48,360 bases of DNA from Bdellovibrionota bacterium (GTDB taxonomy: Bacteria; Bdellovibrionota_C; UBA2361; SZUA-149; JAITKM01). Positions 719 through 45,527 of the stretch are shown here, piece after piece. Each line of letters begins with the position of its first letter. Positions within the stretch are counted from its first letter, which is position 1. The stretch spans positions 1 through 48,360 of the forward strand of contig JAVBQZ010000133.1 in assembly GCA_031548505.1 (NCBI GenBank), written 5' to 3'. The notes beneath the pieces are model-generated. The model was not told the DNA's origin, made no database searches, and worked only from the letters and a program-made list of their open reading frames with translations. A program made the translations under genes and the position numbers.

Positions 719-1033
719 ATGAGAAAATCAATTAAGATATTATCGCCAGTTTCATCGTCCTTGCGAAAACTCGGTAAAGACATGCTTGATGCGCGTCGTC
801 GTCGCAGAATAACACGGGCTTTATTAGCAGAGCGTGCCGGAATAAACGTTTTAACGCTGGCTAAGATAGAAAAAGGCGATGCAGGAGTATCTATTGGTGG
901 ATATGCATCAGTATTGTTTTCCCTTGGGATGGTGGACCGATTACGTGACATCGCGGATGCAAGCCATGACTTAACTGGACAAATGCTGGCAGAAGAACAG
1001 TTGCCAAAACGTGTACGTATCAGCAAAAAATAG
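719..1033 (+). CDS. hipB: XRE-family HTH antitoxin (HipB-like)
   Basis: 104 aa. HTH segment RALLAERAGINVLTLAKIEKG. Ends 12 nt upstream of the hipA-like gene. Confidence 0.75.
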   Translation: MRKSIKILSPVSSSLRKLGKDMLDARRRRRITRALLAERAGINVLTLAKIEKGDAGVSIGGYASVLFSLGMVDRLRDIADASHDLTGQMLAEEQLPKRVRISKK

Positions 1034-1045
1034 AAGGACAACAAA

Positions 1046-2245
1046 ATGGATAATACAAGAGAAGTTTTAGTTTCGATTATGCTCGCCGACAATACGGTGC
1101 CGGTCGGGAGACTATGGTGCTATAATCGCAAAGGTCGTACAAGCACAGCTTTTGAATACGACAAAGAATGGTTGAAGAATCCTAAACGTTTCGCTCTGGA
1201 ACCAGCCTTACACTTAACAGAAGGGTCGCATTATACCGACAAATCCTTGTTTGGCGCAGTTGGAGATTCAGCTCCGGATCGTTGGGGGCGCATTTTAATG
1301 CGCCGCGCAAACGAGACTGGACATACTTTGACGGAGATGGATTATTTGCTTGGAGTTAATGATGAAACGAGACAAGGTGCGTTACGTTTTTCGGAAAAAT
1401 CGGATGGGCCATATTTGGCTGTATCTAAAAATATATCTATTCCTCCGTTAATTAGGTTGCCCGAATTACTTTCGGCTACGGAGAATTTCATAGATGATTC
1501 GGAAAGTGTAGAAGAATTAAAATTGTTGCTTGCTCCAGGATCTTCACTGGGCGGAGCGCGGCCTAAAGCATCTATTGTAGATAAAGCTGGACATCTTGCA
1601 ATTGCTAAATTTCCACGGAAAGATGATGATACTGATGTTGTGCGCTGGGAGGCTGTGGCATTAACATTAGCCAAAAAAGCAGGGCTGAATGTTCCGGATT
1701 GGCATTTGGAAAATATACTTGGGAAATATGTTATAGTTATCAAGCGATTTGATCGCGATAAAAACAGCCGCATTCCTTTTTTATCAGCAATGAGCATGCT
1801 TGGGGCTGCCGATAATGATGGATTGGTTCATAGTTATGAAGACATAGCAGATGTTATTATTCAGCATGGAGCACGGCCGGAAAAAGACTTAGAAGAATTA
1901 TGGCGACGCATGGTTTTTGGAATTATGATTTCGAATAAGGATGACCATTTGAGAAACCATGGTTTTTTATATTTCGGAGCCGGGTGGATATTATCTCCAG
2001 TCTATGATATAAACCCTAATATTGAAAAGGCCGTTTTTTCAACATCTGTTAATGGCAACGGTGCTTTAAACACCGTAGGACTTGCATTAGATTCAGCTTC
2101 ATATTTTAGGCTATCGATTGAACGAGCTAAAGGAATTGTAGAAGAAATAAGAAATGTCGTTGCTGGTTGGGACAAGATTGCCAAACATATTGGTATATCC
2201 AGAAGCGGTATAGAAAAAATGACCTCTGCCTTTCGGACAGATTAA
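1046..2245 (+). CDS. hipA: HipA-family serine/threonine kinase toxin
   Basis: 399 aa. Carries the HipA hallmark motifs SLGGARPK (nucleotide-binding loop) and NKDDHLRNHGF (catalytic loop). Lies immediately downstream of the HTH partner. Confidence 0.85.
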   Translation: MDNTREVLVSIMLADNTVPVGRLWCYNRKGRTSTAFEYDKEWLKNPKRFALEPALHLTEGSHYTDKSLFGAVGDSAPDRWGRILMRRANETGHTLTEMDYLLGVNDETRQGALRFSEKSDGPYLAVSKNISIPPLIRLPELLSATENFIDDSESVEELKLLLAPGSSLGGARPKASIVDKAGHLAIAKFPRKDDDTDVVRWEAVALTLAKKAGLNVPDWHLENILGKYVIVIKRFDRDKNSRIPFLSAMSMLGAADNDGLVHSYEDIADVIIQHGARPEKDLEELWRRMVFGIMISNKDDHLRNHGFLYFGAGWILSPVYDINPNIEKAVFSTSVNGNGALNTVGLALDSASYFRLSIERAKGIVEEIRNVVAGWDKIAKHIGISRSGIEKMTSAFRTD

Positions 2246-4661: not shown

Positions 4662-5135
4662 TTAAAGTGCAATTGCTTTTAATACCTTGTATGCGTTCTC
4701 TGGGTTGTCGATATCGGAGACTGCTTTCTCTATTGGGCATTTATCGTCATAGGTTTTGTTTGAAATGTAGTCTACTATCTCATTTGCTGAATATTTTACA
4801 TTATATTTTTCCAATATGGGAATTGCCTCTCTGGAAAGGACGCCTGTGTCTAGTTCGGTTGCGCCGCCGTAAATTAATATAAGCGAGGAAGCTTTACCTG
4901 TGAATCTATCAAACACGCGGGAATTTTTGAAATTACTGTGCTCAAGATGTTTGAAAAGAGGCTTTATGCCGTTATCATTATATGTTTTGATGGTGCCGTC
5001 ATTGTATGCGACAACTAATGTATGGTTCTTGAGCAATTCTCTCATTTCACTTACGGATGCCCTATCGTTTTTCGCATTACACCCGAAGAAGAGAGTCACA
5101 AAAAACAAACTAATTATCAAATTTCTTTTCCCCAT
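4662..5135 (-). CDS. Probable lipoprotein with DUF1893 (TM1506-like) domain
   Basis: 157 aa. N-terminal signal MGKRNLIISLFFVTLFFGC (lipobox-like FFGC). The body matches my memory of DUF1893: GIKPL...DRFTGKASSLILIYGG...CPIEKAV. Confidence 0.55.
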   Translation of the reverse strand: MGKRNLIISLFFVTLFFGCNAKNDRASVSEMRELLKNHTLVVAYNDGTIKTYNDNGIKPLFKHLEHSNFKNSRVFDRFTGKASSLILIYGGATELDTGVLSREAIPILEKYNVKYSANEIVDYISNKTYDDKCPIEKAVSDIDNPENAYKVLKAIAL

Positions 5136-5264
5136 ATACTTATTTTTAATATTCTTTGGTTATCAATTTGCTATAAATTAAATCGACTTTACAGACCTAA
5201 TTCATAAAATACTCTTTATAATTTTTTTTTAACTTTTTGTAATTCTGATTTCTTTGAAGAAGAA

Positions 5265-5318
5265 GTTTTGGCTCCCCGAGACGGACTTGAACCGCCGACC
5301 CAATGATTAACAGTCATT
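5265..5318. repeat. attL: 54-bp duplicate of the 3' part of tRNA-Asn
   Basis: gttttggctccccgagacggacttgaaccgccgacccaatgattaacagtcatt is identical to 43656-43709. It covers the anticodon stem-loop through the CCA end plus 4 nt. The 5' half of the tRNA is absent here. Confidence 0.9.
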
Positions 5319-5462
5319 AGGTCAGCTCTATAAGAATGCAACATAATCAATGTGTTACATATTTGATATTTCGCTAATACCACAGCGATTTTTTATGTCA
5401 ATATTTTATTTTCAATAAACCTTTTATTTTTTGAAAAAATAAGGTTTAGTGCCATTCCCCAC

Positions 5463-6470
5463 GTGGCTGATGTAATAGTAACGTCATTATCTCAGCAGTT
5501 GGGGGATTCAATGTCTAGCGATACAGCAGAAATCTTAGCCTACCTTAAGGCTAACCTACCTACCAAGTCACAAACAAATTTCATAGAATATGCATATAAA
5601 GTTCTTAAGGCCAAAGAAGGTAAAAAGAAATCAATTAAGATTGATTACAGAAATGTAAAAAGGTTTTTTCAAGACTTTTTCAAAGATGAAAATATTGAAA
5701 ATATAAAAAAGACAGATATTGAAAGATTGCACACAAAAATCAGCCTAGAAAACGGGGCAGTTCAAGCAAACCGAATTTATTCGCTAGTGCATTCTATTTT
5801 TGAATCTGCGGTTTGCGATGAGCTAATACAATTTAACCCGTGTAGAGGAATAAAGAAAAATGTTGAAACACCACGTGCGCAATATTTGGACAGCAAGAAT
5901 CTAGCACGTTTTTTCATTGCGACTAGTTTATTGCCAACGTACTGGAAAAATTATTTTTTTCTGCTGATTTATACTGGCGCACGTGGTGGCAATGTAAGAG
6001 CAATGAAATGGGAATGCATCGATTTTGCAAGTAATATTTGGACTATTCCGGCAAACGAGGCAAAAGGTGGAAAGAAAATTGAAGTAATGTTGACAAAAGA
6101 AACTTTGATTTGTCTGCAAGAAATGCAGGACATTAATAAAGGTTCGGAATTTGTTTTCCCGGCTAAATCTAAGTCAGGGCATATGCAAGAGCCAAAGAAA
6201 ATATGGGCAAAAATAAAAGATGATGCCGGATTGCAAACGTATTGTATGCACGACTTGCGAGCGACTCTCGCCACTTGGCAAGATGAGCTAGGGAGTGATA
6301 TAAGCGTGATTAGTAAGACTTTAGGACACGCGGATGCTAAGACTACTAAGCGATATATTAGGAATAAAAATAAAAAAGAGCTGTCGGCGGTGCTGGAGTC
6401 AGTCGGAAAGGTGAGAGAGCATTTTTCAAAATTTGCTTTGGATAATTCGGATTGGGTGAGAGGTGATTGA
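5463..6470 (+). CDS. int: Tyrosine recombinase / phage integrase
   Basis: 335 aa from a GTG start; an alternative ATG at 5511 gives MSSDTAE. Has an N-terminal SAM-like region. The catalytic region shows TGARGGNVRAMKW, HDLRATLATW and LGHADAKTTKRYI (R...HxxR...Y). Confidence 0.9.
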   Translation: MADVIVTSLSQQLGDSMSSDTAEILAYLKANLPTKSQTNFIEYAYKVLKAKEGKKKSIKIDYRNVKRFFQDFFKDENIENIKKTDIERLHTKISLENGAVQANRIYSLVHSIFESAVCDELIQFNPCRGIKKNVETPRAQYLDSKNLARFFIATSLLPTYWKNYFFLLIYTGARGGNVRAMKWECIDFASNIWTIPANEAKGGKKIEVMLTKETLICLQEMQDINKGSEFVFPAKSKSGHMQEPKKIWAKIKDDAGLQTYCMHDLRATLATWQDELGSDISVISKTLGHADAKTTKRYIRNKNKKELSAVLESVGKVREHFSKFALDNSDWVRGD

Positions 6471-6557
6471 CTTCTTTAACGAATTATGCAATTTTAAAGC
6501 ACAATTTCTACTACTGTAGATAGCCCGAAAGGGTACCTAACTTTAGGTTAGGATGAA

Positions 6558-6588
6558 TAGCCGGATTTAGTTCCGGCTATTTTTTTTT
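6558..6588 (+). terminator. Rho-independent terminator downstream of int
   Basis: tagccgga (6558-6565) pairs with tccggcta (6572-6579), 6-nt loop, followed by T9 (6580-6588). Confidence 0.7.
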
Positions 6589-6731
6589 CTTAGTTCCGCG
6601 ATAAAGTTTCTTACTTTTTCTATTTCGTCCTTACGCAAATAGAAAAATACAGCTTTACCTCGTTGTCCAGCAGGGAGTTTTTTTCTTCCTGAGCCTTCTC
6701 TAGAACCGCCCCAGTTTTCAGTCTTTTTCAT
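6567..6731 (-). CDS. Small basic protein, 54 aa (possible DNA-binding protein or recombination directionality factor)
   Basis: Below the ORF-track size cutoff. My translation: MKKTENWGGSREGSGRKKLPAGQRGKAVFFYLRKDEIEKVRNFIAELRKKNSRN. Its ATG overlaps the stop of the upstream gene by 14 nt. GGSREGSGRKK is an AT-hook-like motif common in small phage DNA-binding proteins. Confidence 0.35.
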   Translation of the reverse strand: MKKTENWGGSREGSGRKKLPAGQRGKAVFFYLRKDEIEKVRNFIAELRKKNSRN

Positions 6732-8831: not shown

Positions 8832-9128
8832 GGTTTACCTTTAGATTTTTTTTGCGATTACAACAAATAGTTACTTTAATCGCCTATTTATACATTATCA
8901 ATACTTTTTATACTTTTGTTGCATTTAATACAGATTTTGTTTCATATTTTTGTGTTTTTATGTAGGGTTTGTTGCAAAATAAAGCCTTTTTGAGGCAAAA
9001 AATCCACCCGATATAAAATTTTATGCCGATAACGGATATTATTATATTTCTAGAAGTAAAGAGGATATGGAAAGAGAGATTAGAAGATTTTAGGAGGCAG
9101 ATATCGTCTCAATAATTAAGAATGAGTT

Positions 9129-9662
9129 ATGGAAGAATTTTTAAAATATATAATTGACTTAGCACCAATTTGGGTTCCCACAGGGATATGTTTAGTTTTT
9201 AAATCTATTTTAAAAGCTGATTTACAGCAATATAAAAGCGAGCTTGAGAAAGAACTAAAGATTGTACAAAAAGATTTAGATATTCTCAAAAATAAAGACA
9301 TCGTTTGCCTACACGAGAAGATAAAGATATATCAGTCGGGAATTGATTTTATTGCTAAAACATTATCTGATTTTACCAAATTCGACTTTAGGCCTAATTC
9401 GTTAAAGTTGCCGACGCCTGAATATATGAGGGAGCTAAATACCGAGAGGCTAAAACTTTATGGGCGTATTGCCACGATCGCACCTCAATCATTAATAAAG
9501 GCACAAGATAGGCTGATAGACTATCTATTTGAAGTAGTAGAAGGGAAGATTGATTACAGCTGGGAAAATGAAGTGCGCCCTAGATCTTTAGAACTTCTCA
9601 ATGAAATTAGAAAAGACTTAGGGTTAAATACAGAAAAAATTTCTTATTTTGGGGAAAGGTAA
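9129..9662 (+). CDS. Hypothetical protein with N-terminal TM segment and coiled-coil region
   Basis: 177 aa. IIDLAPIWVPTGICLVF is followed by heptad-like sequence, LQQYKSELEKELKIVQKDLDILK. Confidence 0.5.
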   Translation: MEEFLKYIIDLAPIWVPTGICLVFKSILKADLQQYKSELEKELKIVQKDLDILKNKDIVCLHEKIKIYQSGIDFIAKTLSDFTKFDFRPNSLKLPTPEYMRELNTERLKLYGRIATIAPQSLIKAQDRLIDYLFEVVEGKIDYSWENEVRPRSLELLNEIRKDLGLNTEKISYFGER

Positions 9663-9670
9663 CCCCCCCT

Positions 9671-9700
9671 TAACACTACCCCTCTAAATGCTGTATAATG
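9671..9700 (+). promoter_or_regulatory. Sigma70-like promoter upstream of the Dit-like gene
   Basis: TTAACA (9671-9676), 18-nt spacer, TATAAT (9695-9700). The -35 shares TTAACAC with the three late promoters. A C7 run (9664-9670) lies directly upstream. Confidence 0.45.
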
Positions 9701-9735
9701 CTCCTGTAAAATAAAAACTCACACAGGAACACTAT

Positions 9736-10623
9736 ATGGCAATAGCAAACACTATACTCAACACCGCATCATCTATTAATTCAGTCGGGCAATACGCAGA
9801 AGCCATATACAACCAGTATATCGTGACGTCATCGACACTGCCGGAAGGCGTGCAAGGCTTTGTATTCGATATTTTCAAGGAAAATTCAATCGAGTTAGAA
9901 GCCGAAATCACCGACCATTACGTAGAAGATAATTCTTACATGCAGGACCATATTGCAGAGAGACCGGAACGTGTTTCATTGTCTGGTTTAGTTGGTGAGC
10001 TGACAATGCAAGACACTATTGGCAGTGTCAGAGATGCGCTAAATAGCGATAATTTGTCGGTTAGTGATGTTCTTAACAACAACGCATTGATTGATACTGC
10101 CACACAAAAGATGGGTATATTAGAAGCGTTATTACCGCCTTTATCTAATAGAGATTACAATCTATTTATGAAGGCACAAGATGCTTACAGACAGTCAACA
10201 GCATTGCTTAGAAAAGGGCAAGAACTGAATTTATACGAGTTATTTGAGCAAAAGGCAGTAGCGGTTACTAAGCAAGCAAAGGCGTTTCAGTTCTTTCAAG
10301 AGGCGTTAAAAAATAGAATCTCACTTATAGTTGTTACTCCGTTTCAGGAATTAGATAATATGTTCATTGAGAGCATACGCGCTAATAGGTCGGAGAGTAC
10401 CGGCGTTTCTAATTTTGAGGTTAGGCTTAAAAGGGTTAGGACTGCGCAAACTAAGGTTACGCAGAAAAAGGCAGTTGGTAGGACTGCTATGCAAAAGCAG
10501 GAGACGGTTGATCACGGGTTGGATAATGGGAAGAAGGTAAGTGATGAGATGAAAGCAACAATTGGTGCTGGTTACACTAGGGCGCTTTTTGGAGGTGATT
10601 TCGACTATAAGATAAAATTATAA
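9736..10623 (+). CDS. Putative tail/baseplate protein (Dit-like N-terminal domain)
   Basis: 295 aa. EITDHYVEDNSYMQDHIAERPERVSLSGLVGE and the later LIVVTPFQELDNMFIESI match my memory of a myophage tail-protein family (T.HPVEdGs.isDH...P..l.l.G; vvT...y.nM.i.s). From memory only. Confidence 0.5.
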   Translation: MAIANTILNTASSINSVGQYAEAIYNQYIVTSSTLPEGVQGFVFDIFKENSIELEAEITDHYVEDNSYMQDHIAERPERVSLSGLVGELTMQDTIGSVRDALNSDNLSVSDVLNNNALIDTATQKMGILEALLPPLSNRDYNLFMKAQDAYRQSTALLRKGQELNLYELFEQKAVAVTKQAKAFQFFQEALKNRISLIVVTPFQELDNMFIESIRANRSESTGVSNFEVRLKRVRTAQTKVTQKKAVGRTAMQKQETVDHGLDNGKKVSDEMKATIGAGYTRALFGGDFDYKIKL

Positions 10624-10698
10624 CAAGGATACATTAAGAGAACGATTACGCCAACATGAGTATGCCGGCACCGACGAGGTAGGGAAGGATATAATAAG

Positions 10699-11286
10699 TT
10701 ATGGTGTCACATGATTAGGTGTTGGATTAGGATAGTCTGGCAATCCAATTCGATTTATATAATTAGCAAATCTTTGCGATAGTTGTTCTCGAACTGGGAT
10801 ATTCAGAGACGTTTTATATTTTTCTTTATGATTATTATACAGCGAATTAAAAGAAACGGAGAAGTGTATTTTAAAATCAATAACTAAATCGGTTGGAAGT
10901 TCTGAAAGAGCAGAATTTATAAAGTGATATCTAGGGTCGCTGTTGCTTTTGATAAATTTAAACCTATCTTTGTTTAACTGATCTTGCTTTATACCAAATA
11001 TGTTAATTAGATGTTCCCCTAGTTTCAAAATATCTGCTTCAAAAATAGGCAAAATAAGAACATTGGGCAAAAACTGATGATTAAGAGATACATTATCCTT
11101 ATTTTTATGGTATTGGCATAAATCACAGTCTTGAGACATAATAGCTATATAAGGAAAGTTAAATTTTTTAACTAAATCGGTGCCGCCTATTTCGCTAACA
11201 ATAGTGGTTATGGTATATCCTCCTAATATATCTCCTTGGCATATTCTTTCTATAGGATCTTTTTTTATACAAAAGGTATTACTCAT
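10699..11286 (-). CDS. Hypothetical protein C of the three-gene operon, 195 aa
   Basis: Motifs CQGDIL, IAIMSQDCDL, LILPIF and a C-terminal LSQRFANYINRIGLPDYP. Its start overlaps the upstream stop by 8 nt. Confidence 0.65.
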   Translation of the reverse strand: MSNTFCIKKDPIERICQGDILGGYTITTIVSEIGGTDLVKKFNFPYIAIMSQDCDLCQYHKNKDNVSLNHQFLPNVLILPIFEADILKLGEHLINIFGIKQDQLNKDRFKFIKSNSDPRYHFINSALSELPTDLVIDFKIHFSVSFNSLYNNHKEKYKTSLNIPVREQLSQRFANYINRIGLPDYPNPTPNHVTP

Positions 11287-11488
11287 CGTCTATTTTAATT
11301 ACAGCAATAACCTTATTTCCAGATCTAGGTTTTACATAATCACTATTGATTTTATGGAGGTTTGGATTTTCTTTATATGTGTCCATATATGCCTCTCCCG
11401 CCTTTATATTAAATTTATACACAGCGTCATCCGTTATGATACGATAATCGCTGTTATTGTTATTCGCTTTTTTATATGTCATATACAA
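11279..11488 (-). CDS. Hypothetical small protein B of the three-gene operon, 69 aa
   Basis: Overlaps the upstream gene by 10 nt and the downstream gene by 8 nt, which suggests translational coupling. No family recognised. Confidence 0.55.
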   Translation of the reverse strand: MYMTYKKANNNNSDYRIITDDAVYKFNIKAGEAYMDTYKENPNLHKINSDYVKPRSGNKVIAVIKIDDE

Positions 11489-12228
11489 ATCCCTTTTTGA
11501 ACTAGAACATCACGTATATGTTTGTTAAACTCTATTTTAATTACTTGAGTATATGCTTCATTTAAATACTTATCCACATCGTCACTATAAAAATTAACAA
11601 CACACGCATCGTAGTCTAAAACAAATTCCTTTTGTTTTATTACAGCAGGAAAATAACTATTAAATAATCCAAAATTTATTGTTAAAGAAAAATCATCTTT
11701 ATTTAAAACTACTGCCTGCAGGTTTCTCCTAAGTTCTTCAGATGTTTTATAGCCGTCAAGAAACGCAATCACATCACTTGAGAAACAGTCCTTGTAATCT
11801 AATTGCAAGCTATTCAAGTTAAAAAGATTTATATATCTAAGTCCTAGCCTAAAGATATTTTTAACTTCAAGTTCTTTAATAAAAATAGATAATACCTTTT
11901 TTATTAGATCTTCTAACTTTTCGAAAGATGTATATACTAAGGTTTCGAAACCAATATTATTATAGTTAATTCTAATAATAACGTCTTGCAACGTCAGGAC
12001 GTGTTCTTGCAACATGATAACTCTAAAAGACTTAAGCTGTGAAGCTGTGTCGTCAGGGGAAAATACTGTCGAATTAACTACACTTGTCTTAATATCCGAG
12101 TATAGTGCCTGTATAGAGCTAACTATATTCCCAGATTTGGTCCCCCATGCCTCATGACTTACTGGTGGGATATCCAACCTGAATATAACATTAGTCTTAA
12201 AGCCATTTTCGTTGTTAATCTCTGCCAT
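11479..12228 (-). CDS. TIGR04255-like protein (protein A of the three-gene operon)
   Basis: 249 aa. The N-terminal NVIFRLDIPP and the internal RLGLRYINLF resemble the hallmarks of the uncharacterised TIGR04255 family (GLRYiN motif). From memory only. Confidence 0.6.
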   Translation of the reverse strand: MAEINNENGFKTNVIFRLDIPPVSHEAWGTKSGNIVSSIQALYSDIKTSVVNSTVFSPDDTASQLKSFRVIMLQEHVLTLQDVIIRINYNNIGFETLVYTSFEKLEDLIKKVLSIFIKELEVKNIFRLGLRYINLFNLNSLQLDYKDCFSSDVIAFLDGYKTSEELRRNLQAVVLNKDDFSLTINFGLFNSYFPAVIKQKEFVLDYDACVVNFYSDDVDKYLNEAYTQVIKIEFNKHIRDVLVQKGICI

Positions 12229-12539
12229 AATCGCCCTTGCCTTAAATAATTAAAATAAAATAATTAAAATACGAAAAATATCTGCGCCAATAATATTTGG
12301 AATATACTCATTATTGATACGTAATATAAGAGAACAATCGGAATATGTAAAAGACAATTTCATACTGTTATTAACAAAATTTAATCTAGTGTTTCATTTC
12401 TATCTAGCAATATAGCAAATGTCAATTTGATCATTCTTTTAGATGTTTATCCACTACTTAAAGTTGCTTAAATTCCATAGAATCAACGATTTAGCCTCCA
12501 TTTGAACTTTTTCATATTTTTATATAAGGTACACGCAGT

Positions 12540-12800
12540 TTGATTACGCGATTAATCAATCATATAAAATATAAAGGAGAATTATATATATTTAATTCCA
12601 TTATTTCAGTTTTCTGCATTGCAATAGGGATTATAATATTTGTTGTTTCTTTATTCGCAATATTGCCTTATGGAGCTATACAAGAGGCTGTCAAGTATCT
12701 TGCCTTTGTTTGTGCCTCAATTTTTCTTGTGGGTGATTTTATGTTGGGAATATTGAGTGACATTCTTATAGAGATTAGAAACACAAAAAATGTAGGGTGA
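12540..12800 (+). CDS. Small membrane protein, about 2 TM segments
   Basis: 86-aa ORF with a TTG start. Hydrophobic stretches IISVFCIAIGIIIFVVSLFAIL and LAFVCASIFLVGDFMLGIL. Its stop overlaps the GTG at 12797 of the next gene. Confidence 0.4.
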   Translation: MITRLINHIKYKGELYIFNSIISVFCIAIGIIIFVVSLFAILPYGAIQEAVKYLAFVCASIFLVGDFMLGILSDILIEIRNTKNVG

Positions 12801-14203
12801 TAAGAATGCTAATACCGAGCAATAAAAGTAAGTGGACGACTTTTGTATTGATGATATTTTTAGGTATGTTTGGTGTCCACAGACTTTATACAAAAAATTA
12901 TAAAACGTTTTCCATTTATGTAATTCTTTGGTGTATTGTATATAACAGTCCGTCACAAGGGAATACATCCACAATTTTTACTGTTTTTATTATTCTCTAT
13001 TGGCTTACCGATATAGTTGTTTTTTTGTTTTGGACGATAAAATTAGCTATTTTTGGTAACTCTAAAAGCGAGATAGTAAGTAACTCAATTCATAACATTA
13101 GTGCAAACGGAGAAGACAGCATAACCCAAACAGAGCTAATGTGTGCGGGTAATAAAATTTTATTGCATCCAGACTTGCATGGGCTAGTTTGGATTGCAGA
13201 TGGCAAATATAGAAACTACAATGGGGAAGTTAGTAATAAACAAAATATCTCAACAGTTGGAGGTAACTTTACAATTTCATTCAGCTTTAACGATAATTTT
13301 GGGGCAGTAGGCGTTGAAGAGCCAAGTTTGATATATACAAAACTAGAACTAACCAAGCCTAGAACATCAGTTGAACGCCCATCTTATTTCCCAAGCTATA
13401 GCGGACTAACTCCAGGGCAGCGGTGGACATATCTACAACTATTAATAAATCCATACGATATGAGCATTGATATAGGATATGTGTTTGTCCTATATTATGG
13501 ACTAGAAAGGCATCTTTTGCTTGGTGATTTTGATAGGGCATTTGAAGCAATTTTAAAACTCCGTGATGTTCATCAAAACAAATCATTTCAATTTTATTCG
13601 GCTAATGCGCTAATCCTAGCATCTATGATGCATAAACGTGGAGAGAAACTGCTAGACTTTGTTAATTCTCTTGATAAGGAGTATGAATATAATTTCTCAA
13701 ATAATTTGTTTTTAATTTGTTATTATAGTTTTGGCATACCATTGCAAGCCGGAAATATAATGAGAATGGCCAAAATGGCTGATTTTTCAAATACTAACTA
13801 CATAAAAAAATACCCTGGTATTTTTTGCGCTACATTGTCGGATGTTTTACTTGAAAAGTATGGAGAAAGTAACATTTTACTGAGTAAGATTATAGATATA
13901 TCTGAATTAGAAAAAATAAAACACGAAAAATCAAATATTTTTGCTAATGTATCAATTATTGACGTAAAAATACATGTTCCTATTTTGGACAATAATCCCA
14001 AGTTAAAAAAAGCAATGAATTCATTGCTTAAAGAAGCGCACAGTAGAACCAAGGTAAAATTATCAGCAATGAGGAAAGACGGAACTCTAGAGAAATATAA
14101 TGAGAAGAAAATAGAAATAAAGAAAATAGAAATAAAGAAAATAGAAACCGCGAATTCTGAAAATAATTTAAATATTTTTGGCGAGCCAGTAGAAACAGAT
14201 TAA
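12797..14203 (+). CDS. TM2-domain / TerB_N-domain fusion membrane protein
   Basis: 468 aa from GTG 12797, or from ATG 12806. N-terminal TM2 signature FVLMIFLGMFGVHRLYTKNY plus further TM segments. Central YFPSYSGLTPGQRWTYLQLL...IGYVFVLYYGLERHLL matches the TerB N-terminal domain pattern. C-terminal (KKIEI)x3 repeat. Confidence 0.7.
   Translation: MIRMLIPSNKSKWTTFVLMIFLGMFGVHRLYTKNYKTFSIYVILWCIVYNSPSQGNTSTIFTVFIILYWLTDIVVFLFWTIKLAIFGNSKSEIVSNSIHNISANGEDSITQTELMCAGNKILLHPDLHGLVWIADGKYRNYNGEVSNKQNISTVGGNFTISFSFNDNFGAVGVEEPSLIYTKLELTKPRTSVERPSYFPSYSGLTPGQRWTYLQLLINPYDMSIDIGYVFVLYYGLERHLLLGDFDRAFEAILKLRDVHQNKSFQFYSANALILASMMHKRGEKLLDFVNSLDKEYEYNFSNNLFLICYYSFGIPLQAGNIMRMAKMADFSNTNYIKKYPGIFCATLSDVLLEKYGESNILLSKIIDISELEKIKHEKSNIFANVSIIDVKIHVPILDNNPKLKKAMNSLLKEAHSRTKVKLSAMRKDGTLEKYNEKKIEIKKIEIKKIETANSENNLNIFGEPVETD
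14105..14149 (+). repeat. Tandem repeat, 3 x 15 bp (aagaaaatagaaata), within the CDS
   Basis: Units at 14105-14119 and 14120-14134 are identical. The unit at 14135-14149 differs in its last 2 nt. Encodes KKIEIKKIEIKKIE. Confidence 0.9.
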
Positions 14204-14339
14204 TTATTTAATATAGCCTAATTAGGCTTGTCCTGTTTTTACATACAATTATAATTATAAAGATGATATTAGCTGAAATGAGCCCAAGGACATCTAATTA
14301 ATTTTATAACCCCTACTATACTAACTCAATTGGAGTTTT

Positions 14340-14747
14340 ATGAACAAAACAATTATCATAACAATATTCCTTGCCCTACTAACCTCGTGCACGGATAAGG
14401 CTACTAAGCTCTGCGAAGAAACTATAGATGACAAAAAATATTGTAAGTGCATTGTCAAAGCAGCCAAAGATAATGGGGTTGATGAGGTTGAAGATTTCAT
14501 CACCGTTGCTAGTGACGATGAAGCGAGGCAGGAATATAAACGTATGTTGCTATTTAGCGGTGGCATTAGTGAGAAAGCATCTCGTTACTTAAAAGTAATA
14601 GGGGATATTGATAACTTTTGTGCAATGAGTAGGTCAATGAGAGAAATTGAAAGCGATATGAAAGAGCAGAGAAAGTATATAGAATCGCGAGGCAAGACTT
14701 CAGTGCCTGAAAAATGGCGCGATGGAACGCTTGGAGAAGGTATTTAA
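14340..14747 (+). CDS. Lipoprotein (prophage moron)
   Basis: 135 aa. Signal plus lipobox MNKTIIITIFLALLTSC. Convergent with the tape measure gene, with 3 nt between the stops. Confidence 0.6.
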   Translation: MNKTIIITIFLALLTSCTDKATKLCEETIDDKKYCKCIVKAAKDNGVDEVEDFITVASDDEARQEYKRMLLFSGGISEKASRYLKVIGDIDNFCAMSRSMREIESDMKEQRKYIESRGKTSVPEKWRDGTLGEGI

Positions 14748-14750
14748 TAT

Positions 14751-16106
14751 TTAAATATTCGGGCTGTTAATTTGCATTATTGTGCTACTTAGGGCATTGC
14801 TTAGGTTTTCCTCTGCCGCTTTATACATATTGTCCAAAAACTCCTGCGGGTTTTTGAGATCGGCTGGTATAGTTATATTTTGAGTAACACTAACGTTATT
14901 GTTTGTTGGGTTAGTAGCTTCGTGTTTTTTGATTATTCCCATTAAATTAGAATAGCCCACATAGCGTCTATCTTTTGCGCTGTAAGAAAGCCCCCCTGTT
15001 TTTTCGTCAAAATTTACTAAACCATATTGCATCATTTTGTAATGAAAATCGTCTAATTTATCTTGTCCTATCTCTTCATTTGTTTTGCCACTTCCAAATG
15101 TCCTGCTACGTAAATCTGTCACAATTACTTCGTTCAAGTTTATTTTTGCCTGTTCTAATTGCGCTCTTCTTTTCTGGGCATGTTTGCTATCCTTGCCCCA
15201 AAAATCTTCTGCATGTTTAAGTTCCGCTTCAAAGCTGTCTATATCATCTTTTGCTTTTTTATATTTAGCTGATTGCACGATGTCATTAGCAACAGAGTTT
15301 GGATTGCCGCTTAATACAGCCTTAGCTTCATTAATCAGCATTATTCCCATCCCAAAAACAGCTAAAAGCGGTGCTTTTATCGCTGCTAACACGCCGCCCG
15401 CGACAAGCAATATTTTAGCAACATTCTCCCAGCCGCCAAGCGCGTCAGCAAATTCATTTCCCATTTCGCGCAAGTTTTCAAATGTGTTTATTAGTGGCTT
15501 AGTCAATGTATCGCTAGAAATTATTTTCTTCCACATACCTGACATTTCAAGCTTAAGCAGTCGCCAAGAATGATTGAGTTCCATCACATTATCCCTATCT
15601 TCCTTTGTTAGCTGTAATTTCTTAAACCTTTCTAACTCATCGGCGGATTGATGCATTAGCAAGACCATTTCAGGACTTACTCCGAGCTTGCCTAAGTATT
15701 CGTTTCTAACTCCAGCATTCTTGATTTTGTCAGCGCGCTTGATGATTTGCTCTAATTTAGCGAAAGCGTCAGTATTCGGATTTATGCCGAACATCATCTG
15801 TGTTTTTTGAGCGTTGAAGCTAGATAAATTCTTCAATGAGCTTTCCAACGCGCTAACTTCTACACCTGCTAGTTTAGCGCGTGTTTCCCATTCCTGAAAT
15901 TTATCTGCATTGATGCCGGATAGCTTTTGAATTTTATCGAGATGCGCAACGTAGTCCATCGTTTCGCCAGCGAGCTGTTGAAATACACGTCCTACGCTTT
16001 TAATGCCCTGTTCAAGCACCATTATTTGCCCTAAGGCTTGATTTAGTCCCTTGTTAAAGCCTTGCGGGTTTATGCCGAGTTCAATGAATGCTTCACCTAG
16101 TTTCAT
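14751..16106 (-). CDS. Tail tape measure protein
   Basis: 451 aa, largely helical. Has an internal hydrophobic Gly/Ala segment, ILLVAGGVLAAIKAPLLAVFGMGIML. Lies immediately downstream of the tube and chaperone genes. Confidence 0.8.
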   Translation of the reverse strand: MKLGEAFIELGINPQGFNKGLNQALGQIMVLEQGIKSVGRVFQQLAGETMDYVAHLDKIQKLSGINADKFQEWETRAKLAGVEVSALESSLKNLSSFNAQKTQMMFGINPNTDAFAKLEQIIKRADKIKNAGVRNEYLGKLGVSPEMVLLMHQSADELERFKKLQLTKEDRDNVMELNHSWRLLKLEMSGMWKKIISSDTLTKPLINTFENLREMGNEFADALGGWENVAKILLVAGGVLAAIKAPLLAVFGMGIMLINEAKAVLSGNPNSVANDIVQSAKYKKAKDDIDSFEAELKHAEDFWGKDSKHAQKRRAQLEQAKINLNEVIVTDLRSRTFGSGKTNEEIGQDKLDDFHYKMMQYGLVNFDEKTGGLSYSAKDRRYVGYSNLMGIIKKHEATNPTNNNVSVTQNITIPADLKNPQEFLDNMYKAAEENLSNALSSTIMQINSPNI

Positions 16107-34427: not shown

Positions 34428-36962
34428 TTATACTAATAATTTAGCTTTAAATACGATGTTGCCATCCGAATTTTTACTTTGTTCATATATTTTATACCTC
34501 GAGCCTTTTTGCAGAAGAAATTCCTGTTCCTCTGGCGTTGCTGAATGGTCGAAAATATATGCGCCTCTTCCTATACCCTTTGGAACATCAATTTCCAATA
34601 TTGCTTTTTGTGCAAACGGTGGCGGGAAGTTTTTCGCTATATTGCCAACGCCCTCCCTAGAAAATGATGTTGATGCAAAGGCTGAATCTTTTTCAACTTC
34701 GCCAACTAATTGCTCTGGTGATTTATCGCCAAATACATCTTTATACGGCATAGAGCGAAATACTTTTACATCCTCTGTAAGTTCGTATTTTGATATAGCT
34801 TCGGCTATATTATCAGCTTGCTCTTTATTACCATATTTATCAACACCAGTCCTTAATCCCCTGTTTATCTCTTCATATGTATCGCCTGTATATGTGCTTA
34901 TGCTATGTTTTTGTGCTTGACTGAGATTTTTATTCCATTCTGTAGTTTTGTCAATTAAGTCGTGTATTGGCTCGTCTGGGTCGTCGACTTTAAATTCTTT
35001 TACGTTATTGGCATGCATAATACTTTCTTTATTTTTAACCTCTTTTTCTGAATCTTTATAGTTACTTGCTTCACGAACTGATATTTCTCTTTTGATGCTT
35101 TCTATTGCGCCTAGAGCAATAGTTTTTTGCCGTTCGTTGTTATTATATTTGCCATTTTCTAAATCCTGTTCAATTTTCTCTACGTCAGATTTAAGTTTTT
35201 CAGTTGAGAACTTTTTATATATTTCATTAGGCTTTTCTTTTATTTCTTTATTTGAGCTTGCACTTTCTGATTTACTAGCCCCACCACCTCCGCCACCTTT
35301 TGTAAATTTCCCGCCCTTGTCTCTTGGGTGATCGTCTTCCTTGAAATCTCCATCAGTCGCAACACCAAACGCCCCATTAATTATTCCATCAATATCTATT
35401 CCGCCTTCCAGCCATTCCGCCTCTTCGCCTTCCGTCATCTCTTCTTTATCCTGCAACATCGTATAAGCACCATCAGCATCGCCTTTAAGAATCACCCTTT
35501 GTTCTTCAGGTGAAATGACACCACTGCCAATATAAACTGACGCTGTATTTGCTCTGATTTGCTCCGTTTCTGCGATTTCTTTCGCTGTAGGTGTATCAAC
35601 CGGATTAAAGACAACATTCAGATAAATAACCTTTCCGCACTCTGACTTTGTCATCATCTCATTATGTCTATTAATCAGTGGGATAAAATCATTCTCTTGA
35701 ATATCTATCAGTGTTTGTGCGTAATCTTTCATCTCGTATTCGCCAGTAGCATTAAAGCCTTTAGGCGTGGTTTTAAGCAGTTTTGTTGCTGGCATTTCAG
35801 CAAGAGATGCTACAAGTTGGTATTGTGTCATTACGGACTCGTCTAGTCCAGCTAATGATGTGTCTAACTGCGTAGGGCTTTGTTCAGTATCATGTATCCA
35901 AACGCCGTGATTGTTGCGTGTCTCGACTAATGTATTAATGGCGGTTCTCAATCTGTCTTCATCAAGAATACCATTTAGAAAATTACCGCCCATTGTTAGT
36001 AATCGCTTAGACAATACCAACATAGGTACTTCATCTGCCGTTTTTTCCGCGCAATAAACACGCTTATAGATTTGCTGTGTTAGCGGTACACCGCCATAAT
36101 AGTAGGCAGGTTTAAGAACATCTGAAACTTCTTCATTAATAACTTTAACACACCAACTACGGTGAATTAGTTTTCCGCCATTGAGGCGATACCATGTAGG
36201 AACTTGGAAATATAAACTATCAGGATTTTGAATTGATTCAGCATCAAACTCCGGCATTATCCAGTAAGGGTCGACGATTTTAAAACCTTCGTAGGAATTA
36301 GGCTTAATTGAATCAATATTGTAGGGAAGTGATAAGTTTAGAGTCTTGTCATTAAAAATAGGAATGGCCAAGCCGTAGCCAAAAGTCTTTTTATTAATGG
36401 TTAGCTTTTTACAAGCGTCTTTAATCTTAAAGTCTTGGTCTGATTTTCTTTTTAAATCAGCGAGTAATTTAACCTTTTCGTCTGTACTTTCTATATCTTC
36501 GCTTTCGTCTTTATCAATGTCACTTTCATCTTGGTAGGTAAGCCTATAGTCTGTAGCAATAGCGTCTTTTGCAGGTATTTCGCAAGCCGAGCCAATCATC
36601 TTATTTTGTTTTAGAATTGCACAGGCATTAAAACCAATGAAGTAGTCTTGAAACATATCCAAGACGGCATCTGTACCGGGTTTAAATCTATATTTTGTAG
36701 TTATTCTGTCGCCCACACTATCCATTGCAACAGATGTTGGTTTGCCGTTATCATCAATACGAATAATGCTATCAATTGTCTTAGAGAATATTTTGTTTAG
36801 AAGCTCGTCACGAGATATAGCTTTATCTGCTTTATCAATTTCGTTTAACCTAATTAGCGCGCCTAATACCTTTTCAATATTTTGTTCTTTATTTTCTATA
36901 GGTGCGCTAACAATCATACCTTTATTCTCTTTGCGAAATATCTCTTTGACAAATCCTAACAT
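34428..36962 (-). CDS. Portal protein fused to a C-terminal ADP-ribosyltransferase (R-S-E type) domain
   Basis: 844 aa, starting 1 nt after the TerL stop. The N-terminal ~540 aa are portal-like (DUF1073-type as I recall). A linker follows: DDHPRDKGGKFTKGGGGGG. The C-terminus carries YTGDTYEEINRGLR, VFRSM, FASTSFS and EEQEFLLQKGSRY, i.e. the R, STS and ExE motifs. Confidence 0.75.
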   Translation of the reverse strand: MLGFVKEIFRKENKGMIVSAPIENKEQNIEKVLGALIRLNEIDKADKAISRDELLNKIFSKTIDSIIRIDDNGKPTSVAMDSVGDRITTKYRFKPGTDAVLDMFQDYFIGFNACAILKQNKMIGSACEIPAKDAIATDYRLTYQDESDIDKDESEDIESTDEKVKLLADLKRKSDQDFKIKDACKKLTINKKTFGYGLAIPIFNDKTLNLSLPYNIDSIKPNSYEGFKIVDPYWIMPEFDAESIQNPDSLYFQVPTWYRLNGGKLIHRSWCVKVINEEVSDVLKPAYYYGGVPLTQQIYKRVYCAEKTADEVPMLVLSKRLLTMGGNFLNGILDEDRLRTAINTLVETRNNHGVWIHDTEQSPTQLDTSLAGLDESVMTQYQLVASLAEMPATKLLKTTPKGFNATGEYEMKDYAQTLIDIQENDFIPLINRHNEMMTKSECGKVIYLNVVFNPVDTPTAKEIAETEQIRANTASVYIGSGVISPEEQRVILKGDADGAYTMLQDKEEMTEGEEAEWLEGGIDIDGIINGAFGVATDGDFKEDDHPRDKGGKFTKGGGGGGASKSESASSNKEIKEKPNEIYKKFSTEKLKSDVEKIEQDLENGKYNNNERQKTIALGAIESIKREISVREASNYKDSEKEVKNKESIMHANNVKEFKVDDPDEPIHDLIDKTTEWNKNLSQAQKHSISTYTGDTYEEINRGLRTGVDKYGNKEQADNIAEAISKYELTEDVKVFRSMPYKDVFGDKSPEQLVGEVEKDSAFASTSFSREGVGNIAKNFPPPFAQKAILEIDVPKGIGRGAYIFDHSATPEEQEFLLQKGSRYKIYEQSKNSDGNIVFKAKLLV

Positions 36963-43519: not shown

Positions 43520-43655
43520 AGTCGCGCCCTCGATAATAATAAATTATTATTACCGTGAGGCTTGATTATTTGATACGATTATAGTACGAAACAAAAATCA
43601 GCTTCACGGGGCAAACATGTAAAGTTGATTTTGTATTTGAATTCTTAAAGAAAAG

Positions 43656-43709
43656 GTTTTGGCTCCCCGAGACGGACTTGAACCGCCGACCCAATGATTA
43701 ACAGTCATT
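43656..43709. repeat. attR: 54-bp repeat forming the 3' part of the intact tRNA-Asn
   Basis: Identical to 5265-5318. Confidence 0.9.
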
Positions 43710-43735
43710 TGCTCTACCGACTGAGCTATCGGGGA
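43660..43735 (-). tRNA. tRNA-Asn (anticodon GTT)
   Basis: The reverse complement folds by hand into a 76-nt cloverleaf: acceptor TCCCCGA/TCGGGGA, D arm GCTC/GAGC, anticodon stem AATGA/TCATT with loop CTGTTAA, T arm GGCGG/CCGTC with TTCAAGT. The CCA end is encoded. Confidence 0.9.
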
Positions 43736-44177: not shown

Positions 44178-45527
44178 GTGATAGGCGGTTTCTTTGATGC
44201 TACAAAAATACCTGAACTTAGAAAACGACTTTTATTTGTCGTCCTAATGTTAATAATTTATCGTATCGGCGTGTTTATTCCTATTCCGGGAATTGACGTC
44301 ATGGCGTTTAAAAGTTTTATGGAGCAAAGTGCTGCGGCCGGAATTTTCGGTATGGCAAATATGTTTTCGGGTGGTGCATTAGAAAATTTCTCAATCATGG
44401 CTCTCGGGATTATGCCTTATATTTCGGTGAGCATCATCATGCAATTATTGCAGCATACTTTTAAACCGTTAGAAGAATTAGCAAAGGAAGGGCAACAAGG
44501 GCGTAAAAAAATTTCACGTTATACGCGTTTTTTAACAGTCTTTCTGGCTTTGTTTCAGGGATATGTTATCAGTGCAGGACTTGAAGCGCAGGGTGGGATT
44601 GTTGAAACACCGGGGTTAGCTTTTAGAGTTTGTACAGCGATTACACTTTGTACAGGTACAATGTTCATAATGTGGCTTGGTGAACAAATTACGGAACGAG
44701 GAATTGGCAATGGTATCAGTATCATTATTATGTCGGGTATTGTTGCGAGAATGCCTGCAGGAATCGGAAGCACGTACACATTACTTGCTGATGATGATGC
44801 TTATGGTAAGTTTTTACTATTGTTCCTTTTTGGACTTTTGGTAATTTCTTTTGTGGTTTTTATTGAGCGTTCACTTCGGGAAATTCCAGTTAAATATCCA
44901 TCGCGTGCGGTTGGACGTGGGCAGATGGCTAAATCATTTACACAATATTTACCACTTAAGTTGAATAGTTCGGGTGTGATGCCTGCAATTTTTGCATCGG
45001 CGTTCATCAGTTTACCGATCATGATTATTCAATTTTTACATCTTGATTCGATGCAATGGTTTTTAGATCATATTAATCGTGGTGGTGGTTTGTATGAAGT
45101 AATTTTTGGTGCACTTATTGTGTTCTTTTGCTTCTTCTATACTGCACTTGTATTTGACCCGGATAAATTATCTGATAATTTAAAGAGTAATGGTGGTTTT
45201 ATTCCTACTGTACGTCCGGGCAAAGATACTGCAATCTTTATTGGTAATGTAATTACGCGTTTAACGGTTTGGGGCGCTGCTTACATGTGTATTGTTTGTA
45301 TCGTGCCACAAGTCATTTATCGTGAATTTAATGCAGTAAGCTTTAGTTATTTCTTTGGTGGAACGGCTGTGCTTATTACTGTCGGTGTTGTGATAGATAC
45401 TATTTCACAAATTGAACCGTATTTGGTTTCGCGCAACTACGAAAGTTTAATGAAAAAAGGCGCCGGCAAAGTTCGTGGCATAGGTCAGGCAATGCCTCAC
45501 ATGAAAGGGAAGTTGATACAGAGATAG
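44178..45527 (+). CDS. secY: Preprotein translocase subunit SecY
   Basis: 449 aa. GTG start preceded by aaggagag. Canonical motifs LGIMPYISVSII and GEQITERGIGNGISIII, and 10 TM-like segments. Confidence 0.9.
   Translation: MIGGFFDATKIPELRKRLLFVVLMLIIYRIGVFIPIPGIDVMAFKSFMEQSAAAGIFGMANMFSGGALENFSIMALGIMPYISVSIIMQLLQHTFKPLEELAKEGQQGRKKISRYTRFLTVFLALFQGYVISAGLEAQGGIVETPGLAFRVCTAITLCTGTMFIMWLGEQITERGIGNGISIIIMSGIVARMPAGIGSTYTLLADDDAYGKFLLLFLFGLLVISFVVFIERSLREIPVKYPSRAVGRGQMAKSFTQYLPLKLNSSGVMPAIFASAFISLPIMIIQFLHLDSMQWFLDHINRGGGLYEVIFGALIVFFCFFYTALVFDPDKLSDNLKSNGGFIPTVRPGKDTAIFIGNVITRLTVWGAAYMCIVCIVPQVIYREFNAVSFSYFFGGTAVLITVGVVIDTISQIEPYLVSRNYESLMKKGAGKVRGIGQAMPHMKGKLIQR

Follow-up and report, generated by a model that had tools for sequence, protein, structure and literature searches.

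The window examined here comprises 48,360 nt of contig JAVBQZ010000133.1, from a Bdellovibrionota bacterium, and consists of host DNA flanking a ~38.4-kb prophage at tRNA-Asn. Inside the prophage lie three overlapping minus-strand genes, here called A, B and C, which recur in the same order across Bacteria and Archaea and may form a toxin-antitoxin (TA)-like cassette. The three genes and the region upstream of them are arranged as follows.

11479-12228, minus strand: gene A, 249 aa, ATG start
11279-11482, minus strand: gene B, 67 aa from ATG 11482; 69 aa (to 11488) from TTG 11488
10699-11286, minus strand: gene C, 195 aa, ATG start
12229-12539, minus strand: upstream intergenic region, common to A and a divergent plus-strand gene at 12540

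Gene structure and recurrence of the A-B-C unit

A preliminary description of the locus, made from the DNA letters, had reported overlaps of 10 and 8 nt between consecutive genes. The 8-nt overlap at the B/C junction is present (ATGAGTAA), but the 10-nt overlap between A and B holds only if B starts at TTG 11488. With ATG 11482 as the start codon, B overlaps the stop of A by 4 nt (ATGA) and yields a 67-aa product, which is the form recorded in the public protein collection, and this shorter overlap is the more likely one. The motifs quoted in that description (NVIFRLDIPP, RLGLRYINLF, QGDIL, IAIMSQDCDL, LILPIF and LSQRFANYINRIGLP) were all found in the translated reading frames. A candidate sigma-70-like promoter, TTTACA-17-TATATT, lies upstream of A from 12351 to 12323; a scan of 10400-12900 returned 18 such sites against 12.9 expected, and the candidate taken alone is not significant. 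The start of A is preceded by a Shine-Dalgarno-like AAGGG. A perfect, AT-rich direct tandem repeat of two 14-nt copies (AAATAATTAAAATA) occupies 12244-12271, 16-43 nt upstream of the A start, and could be an operator or merely AT-rich sequence. The fraction of G+C is 0.29-0.33 across ~10.5-14.5 kb versus ~0.36-0.43 in the late-gene block, in keeping with the low-GC accessory island noted previously; its placement within the tail module was only approximate, as the island sits between the late genes and the integrase end.

The arrangement of the triad is not a product of chance, as the same three-gene order was observed in more than 130 independent loci, where the genes are strictly syntenic; the co-occurrence raised in the preliminary description was thus borne out. 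A scan with patterns from 11 C sequences, covering one genome per GTDB species, returned 70 loci, and in essentially every one with room for it A was found directly upstream of C on the same strand (hmmsearch). An independent scan of metagenomes seeded with A gave 80 loci, of which the 69 with at least 500 nt of downstream sequence were counted; C followed A in 68 of these, 67 being clear and one containing masked bases. Nearly all loci have a small reading frame between A and C. Of 40 loci, 78% retain the overlap of the B stop with the C start, which has a median length of 14 nt. Five neighbourhoods of C or A homologues display the same succession of overlapping genes encoding ~250, ~60-75 and ~190-205 aa.

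The distribution of the unit is sporadic and reaches distant lineages. Bacterial hosts include Omnitrophota, Elusimicrobiota, Spirochaetota, Planctomycetota, Acidobacteriota, Chloroflexota and Patescibacteria/Saccharibacteria (candidate phyla radiation), the cyanobacterium Cronbergia, and Alpha-, Beta- and Gammaproteobacteria, among them Legionella bononiensis, Piscinibacter koreensis and Chelatococcus reniformis. In the Archaea, the genes were found in Methanobrevibacter, Methanothrix, Methanofastidiosum, Nanoarchaeota and Aenigmatarchaeota. The 120 genes that immediately flank the unit at 60 loci represent 117 different Pfam families. The idea of a fourth conserved gene or of a dedicated regulator was rejected, since an upstream helix-turn-helix (HTH) gene was seen in only 2 of the 60 loci. 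A minority of the flanking genes encode mobility or defence functions, namely two integrases, one transposase, an EcoRI restriction-modification system, a type IIG enzyme and an SNF2 helicase (ZorD/DpdE type).

Two further copies illustrate where the unit can reside. At 5103-6618 of locus L003 (Elusimicrobiota, BAAFTZ010000004.1), the triad and two Mrr_N-domain genes lie between secY and adk, in the ribosomal-protein (spc/alpha) operon region. Another copy of the cassette adjoins an integrase.

Properties of the three proteins

The AlphaFold2 model of C, built from a 68-sequence alignment, has a mean predicted local distance difference test (pLDDT) score of 91 and a predicted template modelling score (pTM) of 0.83. 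All of the top 50 Foldseek matches in the PDB are MazF proteins (S. aureus, B. subtilis, and M. tuberculosis MazF-mt1/mt3), with E values down to 2.6e-5. Template modelling (TM) scores against these structures are 0.6-0.75 when normalized to the target and ~0.4 when normalized to the query, the latter being low because C is ~80 residues larger than MazF. The core of C is thus predicted to adopt the MazF/PemK fold, i.e., a MazF/CcdB-type SH3-like barrel. The preliminary description had likened C loosely to PemK/MazF, and on the side of the fold the comparison was apt, but membership by sequence was not recovered and the canonical catalytic residues appear to be missing. No Pfam, NCBIfam, PADLOC or PHROG family was assigned to C, and a Pfam search of 68 family members at E values up to 10 gave no recurring family. 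When PDB sequences were searched with profiles of the two families C and A, only noise was returned, with no MazF for C, and hhalign of the C family with B. subtilis MazF gave a probability of 0.1%, with only the NQFLPN segment aligned. In a manual alignment, the C motifs GDI, FPY-IAIM-SQD, NQFLPN-VLIL and VIDFK can be paired with GDV, RPVLVIQND, NRFSPTAIV and (E/D)Q of MazF/Kid.

The C family is large, and exhaustive HMMER searches recovered 2,286 clusters at 50% identity (E ≤ 1e-3), or 1,066 at E ≤ 1e-10. Across 282 sequences, including a clade of ~25% identity, 13 positions are essentially universal: Q17, Q52, D53, C54, D55, R119, Y/F120, D137, F138, K/R139, R172, R179 and P183. The family signature can be written as Q17-G-D, S51-Q-D-C-D55, R119-Y-H, D137-F-K139, E167, R172, R179 and P183. 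The near-universal conservation of these polar, Cys and Pro positions points to an enzyme, and the signature, judged from the alignment, looks enzyme-like and distinct from that of classical MazF. The C proteins of a distant high-GC clade lack R14, H92 and R166, all of which are conserved in clade 1. A structural C2H2 zinc site formed by C16, C54, H92 and H121 was rejected, as C16 occurs in 39% of the 282 sequences and H92 is mostly missing from the distant clade.

Protein A is a member of TIGR04255, a curated NCBIfam family (entered as 'sporadTIGR04255') whose function is left blank, and the assignment made in the preliminary description was confirmed at 49.3 bits against a curated cutoff of 30 (E 5.6e-13). 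The alignment is confined to residues 83-229 of A, corresponding to positions 78-235 of the 252-position model, and A is for this reason regarded as a divergent branch of the family. A had no match in Pfam or PADLOC and no significant match in PHROG, and neither TIGR04255 nor its synonyms were mentioned in the literature searched. A word-index search with the single sequence recovered A alone; homologues were retrieved with a 4-sequence alignment built from the loci. They measure 235-298 aa, occur in many phyla and are in many cases annotated as TIGR04255 by NCBI and JGI. R131, G187, N190, P194 and D205 are universally conserved. In the AlphaFold2 model (117-sequence alignment, pLDDT 87.8), A consists of two consecutive beta-alpha-beta4-alpha units, and its predicted fold is that of a tandem (pseudo-dimeric) TBP-like protein. 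Foldseek gave weak matches to TBP in the PDB (E ~4e-3, probability 0.93, TM-score 0.26-0.35), and in BFVD it matched giant-virus TBP-like proteins (E values down to 6e-6). The calculated isoelectric point (pI) of A is 5.2.

Protein B, described at the outset as lacking a recognizable family, indeed has no match in NCBIfam, Pfam, PADLOC or PHROG. In 40 loci of the closer clade, B ranges from 39 to 115 aa (median 61) and is hypervariable except at its C-terminus. In an alignment of these loci, the conserved part comprises a C-terminal Tyr, then basic residues, then a strand-like segment with alternating hydrophobic residues (…SDYVKPRSGNKVIAVIKIDDE). The protein is fast-evolving and largely of low complexity. 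In the distant high-GC clade (loci L049-L079, from Nitrospira, Acidobacteriota, Planctomycetota, Chelatococcus and others), the middle gene encodes a different, longer protein that contains a helical module, 'LCHxLVDxxPxxGLxE…EFY', and ends in an acidic 'RPxFxIxEE'. A few members of the C family (P0226, and possibly P0194, P0198, P0259 and P0326) carry N-terminal extensions of 55-97 aa, and in P0226 alone the extension ends in an in-frame B-like C-terminal motif. P0226 could be a natural B-C fusion or an artefact of sequencing or gene calling; most of the other extensions look like gene-calling artefacts.

Prophage setting and neighbouring genes

The prophage that carries the triad is delimited by the following features.

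5254-5323 and 43645-43714: 70-nt direct repeat, 93% identical, copying the 3' part of tRNA-Asn and bounding the prophage
43660-43735, minus strand: tRNA-Asn
5463-6470, plus strand: integrase, at one prophage end
14751-16106, minus strand: last minus-strand late gene, weak tape-measure match

The minus-strand late genes of the prophage, which include terminase, portal, head protease and baseplate genes, form a late-gene block at 14751-43415, and outside the repeats lie host genes (hipA, HAD hydrolase, secY and tag). The accessory stretch that holds the triad has genes on both strands and lies between the last of the minus-strand late genes and the integrase end. On its integrase side, it adjoins a Dit-like/tail-fibre PHROG gene (9736-10623, plus strand) that is encoded on the strand opposite to the late genes, an odd position for a distal-tail gene. 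On the other side, a divergent plus-strand group begins with an 86-aa protein with two or three transmembrane helices (12540-12800), whose gene overlaps the next by 4 nt. The latter (12797-14203) encodes a 468-aa TM2 and TerB_N protein that matches SngA of the Shango system in PADLOC (E 1.9e-11), with no SngB or SngC near it. A 135-aa lipoprotein-like reading frame (14340-14747, plus strand) closes the group, which may constitute a second moron or exclusion module. A blastn search with 9000-15000 against 50,697 phage records gave no match.

Other observations concern the remainder of the window. The 844-aa portal/minor-head protein (34428-36962, minus strand) matches an ADP-ribosyltransferase (ART) exoenzyme toxin PHROG over its C-terminal residues ~671-841 (E 1.1e-8), which may reflect the fusion of an ART-like domain to a portal/Mu-F-like protein. 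Just beyond the prophage, in the host flank, a 104-aa reading frame, probably HipB (719-1033, plus strand), precedes a HipA-family kinase toxin (1046-2245, plus strand; HipA_C E 3e-47, Couple_hipA), and 719-2245 looks like a hipBA TA locus. Downstream of secY, the host flank contains intergenic pairs of direct repeats of 70-90 nt, at 45592-45662/47874-47944 (90% identity) and 47151-47241/48077-48167 (81%), which may be repeated regulatory or small mobile elements. In a collection of 15 billion proteins, the host SecY (44178-45527, plus strand), HipA, the integrase and the terminase all form singletons at the 90% identity level, so that no close sequenced relative of the host lineage is present there.

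A putative tripartite cassette and its alternatives

The relationships of the triad to known systems are partial in every case. The predicted SH3-like barrel of C resembles that of MazF/PemK (Kid; PF02452, CcdB/MazF superfamily), and so do the positions of its motifs: strand 1 carries GD[IV], Q/D comes after a P-hydrophobic strand, and N-x-F-x-P leads into the strand that follows. The small overlapping gene upstream of C and the sporadic, mobile distribution are further points of similarity. Unlike MazF/PemK, C is longer by ~80 aa and contains both a helical insertion and a C-terminal helix that bears universally conserved Arg residues, and it has its own Q-D-C-D, R-Y-H and D-F-K signature, the catalytic Arg and Thr appearing replaced by Phe in the manual alignment. 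The partner B is devoid of a MazE/PemI-type DNA-binding domain, and a third gene, A, is always present. For TIGR04255 itself, the obligate pairing of A with the B and C genes appears in no annotation that we have seen.

A second comparison is offered by RnlA/LsoA (TBP1-TBP2-HEPN, with the antitoxin RnlB), which share with the triad tandem TBP-like domains, an RNase-type toxin fold and a small protein partner. In RnlA, the TBP1 domain is needed for RNA binding by this anti-phage RNase toxin (PMC8266594). Unlike RnlA/LsoA, the triad encodes its TBP-like module and its putative nuclease as two proteins, A and C; the fold of C is MazF-like rather than HEPN and without an Rx4-6H motif, and A is acidic; RnlA was not among the top 50 Foldseek matches for A. 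By analogy, A and C could be a split counterpart of RnlA with a MazF-fold nuclease. The tripartite TA systems TAC and PaaR-PaaA-ParE also have three co-directional coupled genes, a toxin-fold protein and a small, labile-looking partner. The triad differs from them in its third component, A not being a SecB-like chaperone or an HTH regulator, and in its gene order, which starts with the large partner and ends with the toxin-fold protein; none of its components is homologous to theirs in sequence. As in type II TA loci generally, the genes are compact, co-directional and overlapping, and their distribution is sporadic and mobile. No paper linking MazF-like and TBP-like proteins, or describing a three-gene MazF-like defence system, was found in the literature searched. 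The earlier remark that no described defence system was known to have this composition also held, in that the models of PADLOC, Pfam, NCBIfam and PHROG cover neither B nor C.

We propose, with confidence that is evenly divided, that A-B-C is a self-contained, horizontally mobile three-component TA-like cassette, possibly acting by abortive infection, and that it is accessory cargo of the prophage. What the analysis establishes is how the genes are arranged, which folds are predicted, that synteny is strict, that the unit occurs sporadically and that B and C fall outside known families; toxicity and any effect on phages are inferred, as are the substrate and the roles given to A, B and C. C would be the effector, a very divergent member of the MazF/CcdB superfamily that keeps the barrel and the substrate groove and may have swapped the classical Arg and Thr for its own conserved set (Q-D-C-D, R-Y-H, D-F-K and two Arg residues). 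This set suggests that C most likely acts on a phosphate-bearing substrate, as a nuclease or as some other enzyme. B would be a neutralizer or adaptor, translated in step with C through the overlapping frame, and might use its conserved C-terminal Tyr/basic strand for docking, much as MazE-type antitoxins thread their tail onto MazF. A would be an obligate partner, whose TBP-like fold may position the substrate for C, an idea that derives from the two TBP-like domains of RnlA, or may sense a trigger and control the release of C.

Several results weigh against such a cassette. The flanks at the 60 loci are mostly housekeeping genes (tRNA synthetases, SecY, DNA polymerase A), and only ~5 of the 120 flanking genes encode restriction-modification or helicase-type defence, so that there is no clear defence-island signal. 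Patterns from C and A found no relative in 2.9 million IMG/VR viral contigs, and the initial view of the locus as a classic moron/defence slot is accordingly weakened, the triad being no typical phage moron. None of the three proteins matched PADLOC-DB v2.0.0 at E values up to 0.1, a release that dates from 2023 and does not cover later systems; NCBIfam was searched in release 20 (June 2026). No DNA-binding or antitoxin domain was recognizable in B (no MazE, AbrB or RHH by Pfam). The TBP-like assignment of A depends on low TM-scores (0.26-0.45 in the PDB and BFVD), and its family is acidic (median pI 5.6), which is atypical of nucleic-acid binders. By sequence, C is not PemK/MazF, with no PF02452 match in C or any of the 68 members at E values up to 10, and having failed this test it should not be classed as such despite its fold. 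The MazF catalytic residues are the Arg R25 of BsMazF (R29 of EcMazF) and the Thr/Ser T48 (T52), and the manual, motif-anchored alignment would put F44 and F82 of C at R25 and T48; MazF-type RNase activity of C is therefore not assured. Taken with the absence of a fourth gene, the unrelated flanks and the IMG/VR result describe a self-contained mobile unit that is neither a clear defence-island resident nor a common phage gene set.

Some of these results would suit a different explanation, in which A-B-C is an accessory enzyme complex for RNA/nucleotide modification or repair, unconnected with conflict, with the C barrel serving as the scaffold of a new active site and A and B as subunits. The loss of the apparent MazF catalytic residues in C and the gain of a different universal set that includes a Cys, the acidic to neutral character of both A and C, the housekeeping neighbours, the lack of a defence or TA model match and the absence from IMG/VR are all in line with this. 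We nevertheless regard it as rather unlikely, because the extremely patchy spread over Bacteria and Archaea in unrelated contexts, the insertions in a ribosomal operon, beside integrases and in a prophage, the very fast-evolving middle gene and the compact, overlapping, stand-alone organization are hallmarks of selfish or conflict modules and not of housekeeping enzymes. A module of benefit to this prophage lineage, through superinfection exclusion, anti-defence or host takeover, is improbable: the location inside a prophage, in a low-GC accessory stretch next to moron-like membrane genes (TM2/TerB_N, the small transmembrane protein and the lipoprotein), speaks for it, but a relative is missing from 2.9 million viral contigs, PHROG gave no match, and the 130-plus other loci are chromosomal with housekeeping flanks.

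The cassette proposed above also has to be set against two further readings of C as a toxin. An ordinary mazEF/pemIK type II pair, with B as the antitoxin and C as the toxin beside an unrelated TIGR04255 gene, would account for the MazF fold of C and the small overlapping gene upstream; it is largely refuted by the coupling of A to C in essentially every locus found from either query, and the failure of the 195-aa C and the rest of the 68 members to match the PemK_toxin model, the lack of apparent catalytic Arg and Thr, and the lack of a MazE, AbrB or RHH domain in B make it very improbable. ToxN-type toxins are ~170-190 aa long and have a Kid/MazF-like fold, and a type III system (ToxIN/AbiQ-like), in which a MazF-like endoribonuclease is held by an upstream repetitive RNA and B is not a real protein, might be considered on these grounds. 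Such a system is barely conceivable here, being refuted by the absence of tandem repeats between A and C, where no Rfam match was obtained either; moreover, the B frame stays open at almost every locus, its C-terminal peptide motif and its overlap with C are conserved, and the Foldseek matches of C are to MazF and not to ToxN.

Within the resources searched, the MazF fold and the TIGR04255 membership are known elements, and the architecture of the module and the signature of C are new. If the proposed cassette is real, it would provide the first functional context for TIGR04255, an unstudied curated family. It would likewise establish a new and large branch within the MazF/CcdB fold, with ~2,300 clusters that no Pfam, NCBIfam or PADLOC model describes and an active-site signature unlike that of classical MazF, and would add a new three-component architecture (a TBP-like partner, a hypervariable peptide and a MazF-fold effector) to the TA and abortive-infection systems. 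Cultured carriers exist in Legionella bononiensis 30cs62, Piscinibacter koreensis ID0723, Chelatococcus reniformis CGMCC 1.12919 and Cronbergia sp. UHCC 0137, and the distribution reaches methanogens, Nanoarchaeota and Patescibacteria. More tentatively, and with somewhat less confidence than not, we suggest that A-B-C represents an unrecognized and very widespread family of three-part conflict systems, numbering more than 2,000 protein clusters in Bacteria and Archaea, including the small-genome Patescibacteria and Nanoarchaeota/Aenigmatarchaeota. In such a family, a MazF-fold protein with a new catalytic centre, and with it perhaps a new biochemical activity, would be controlled by a hypervariable small peptide and by a TBP-like partner that serves as a sensor or binds the substrate.

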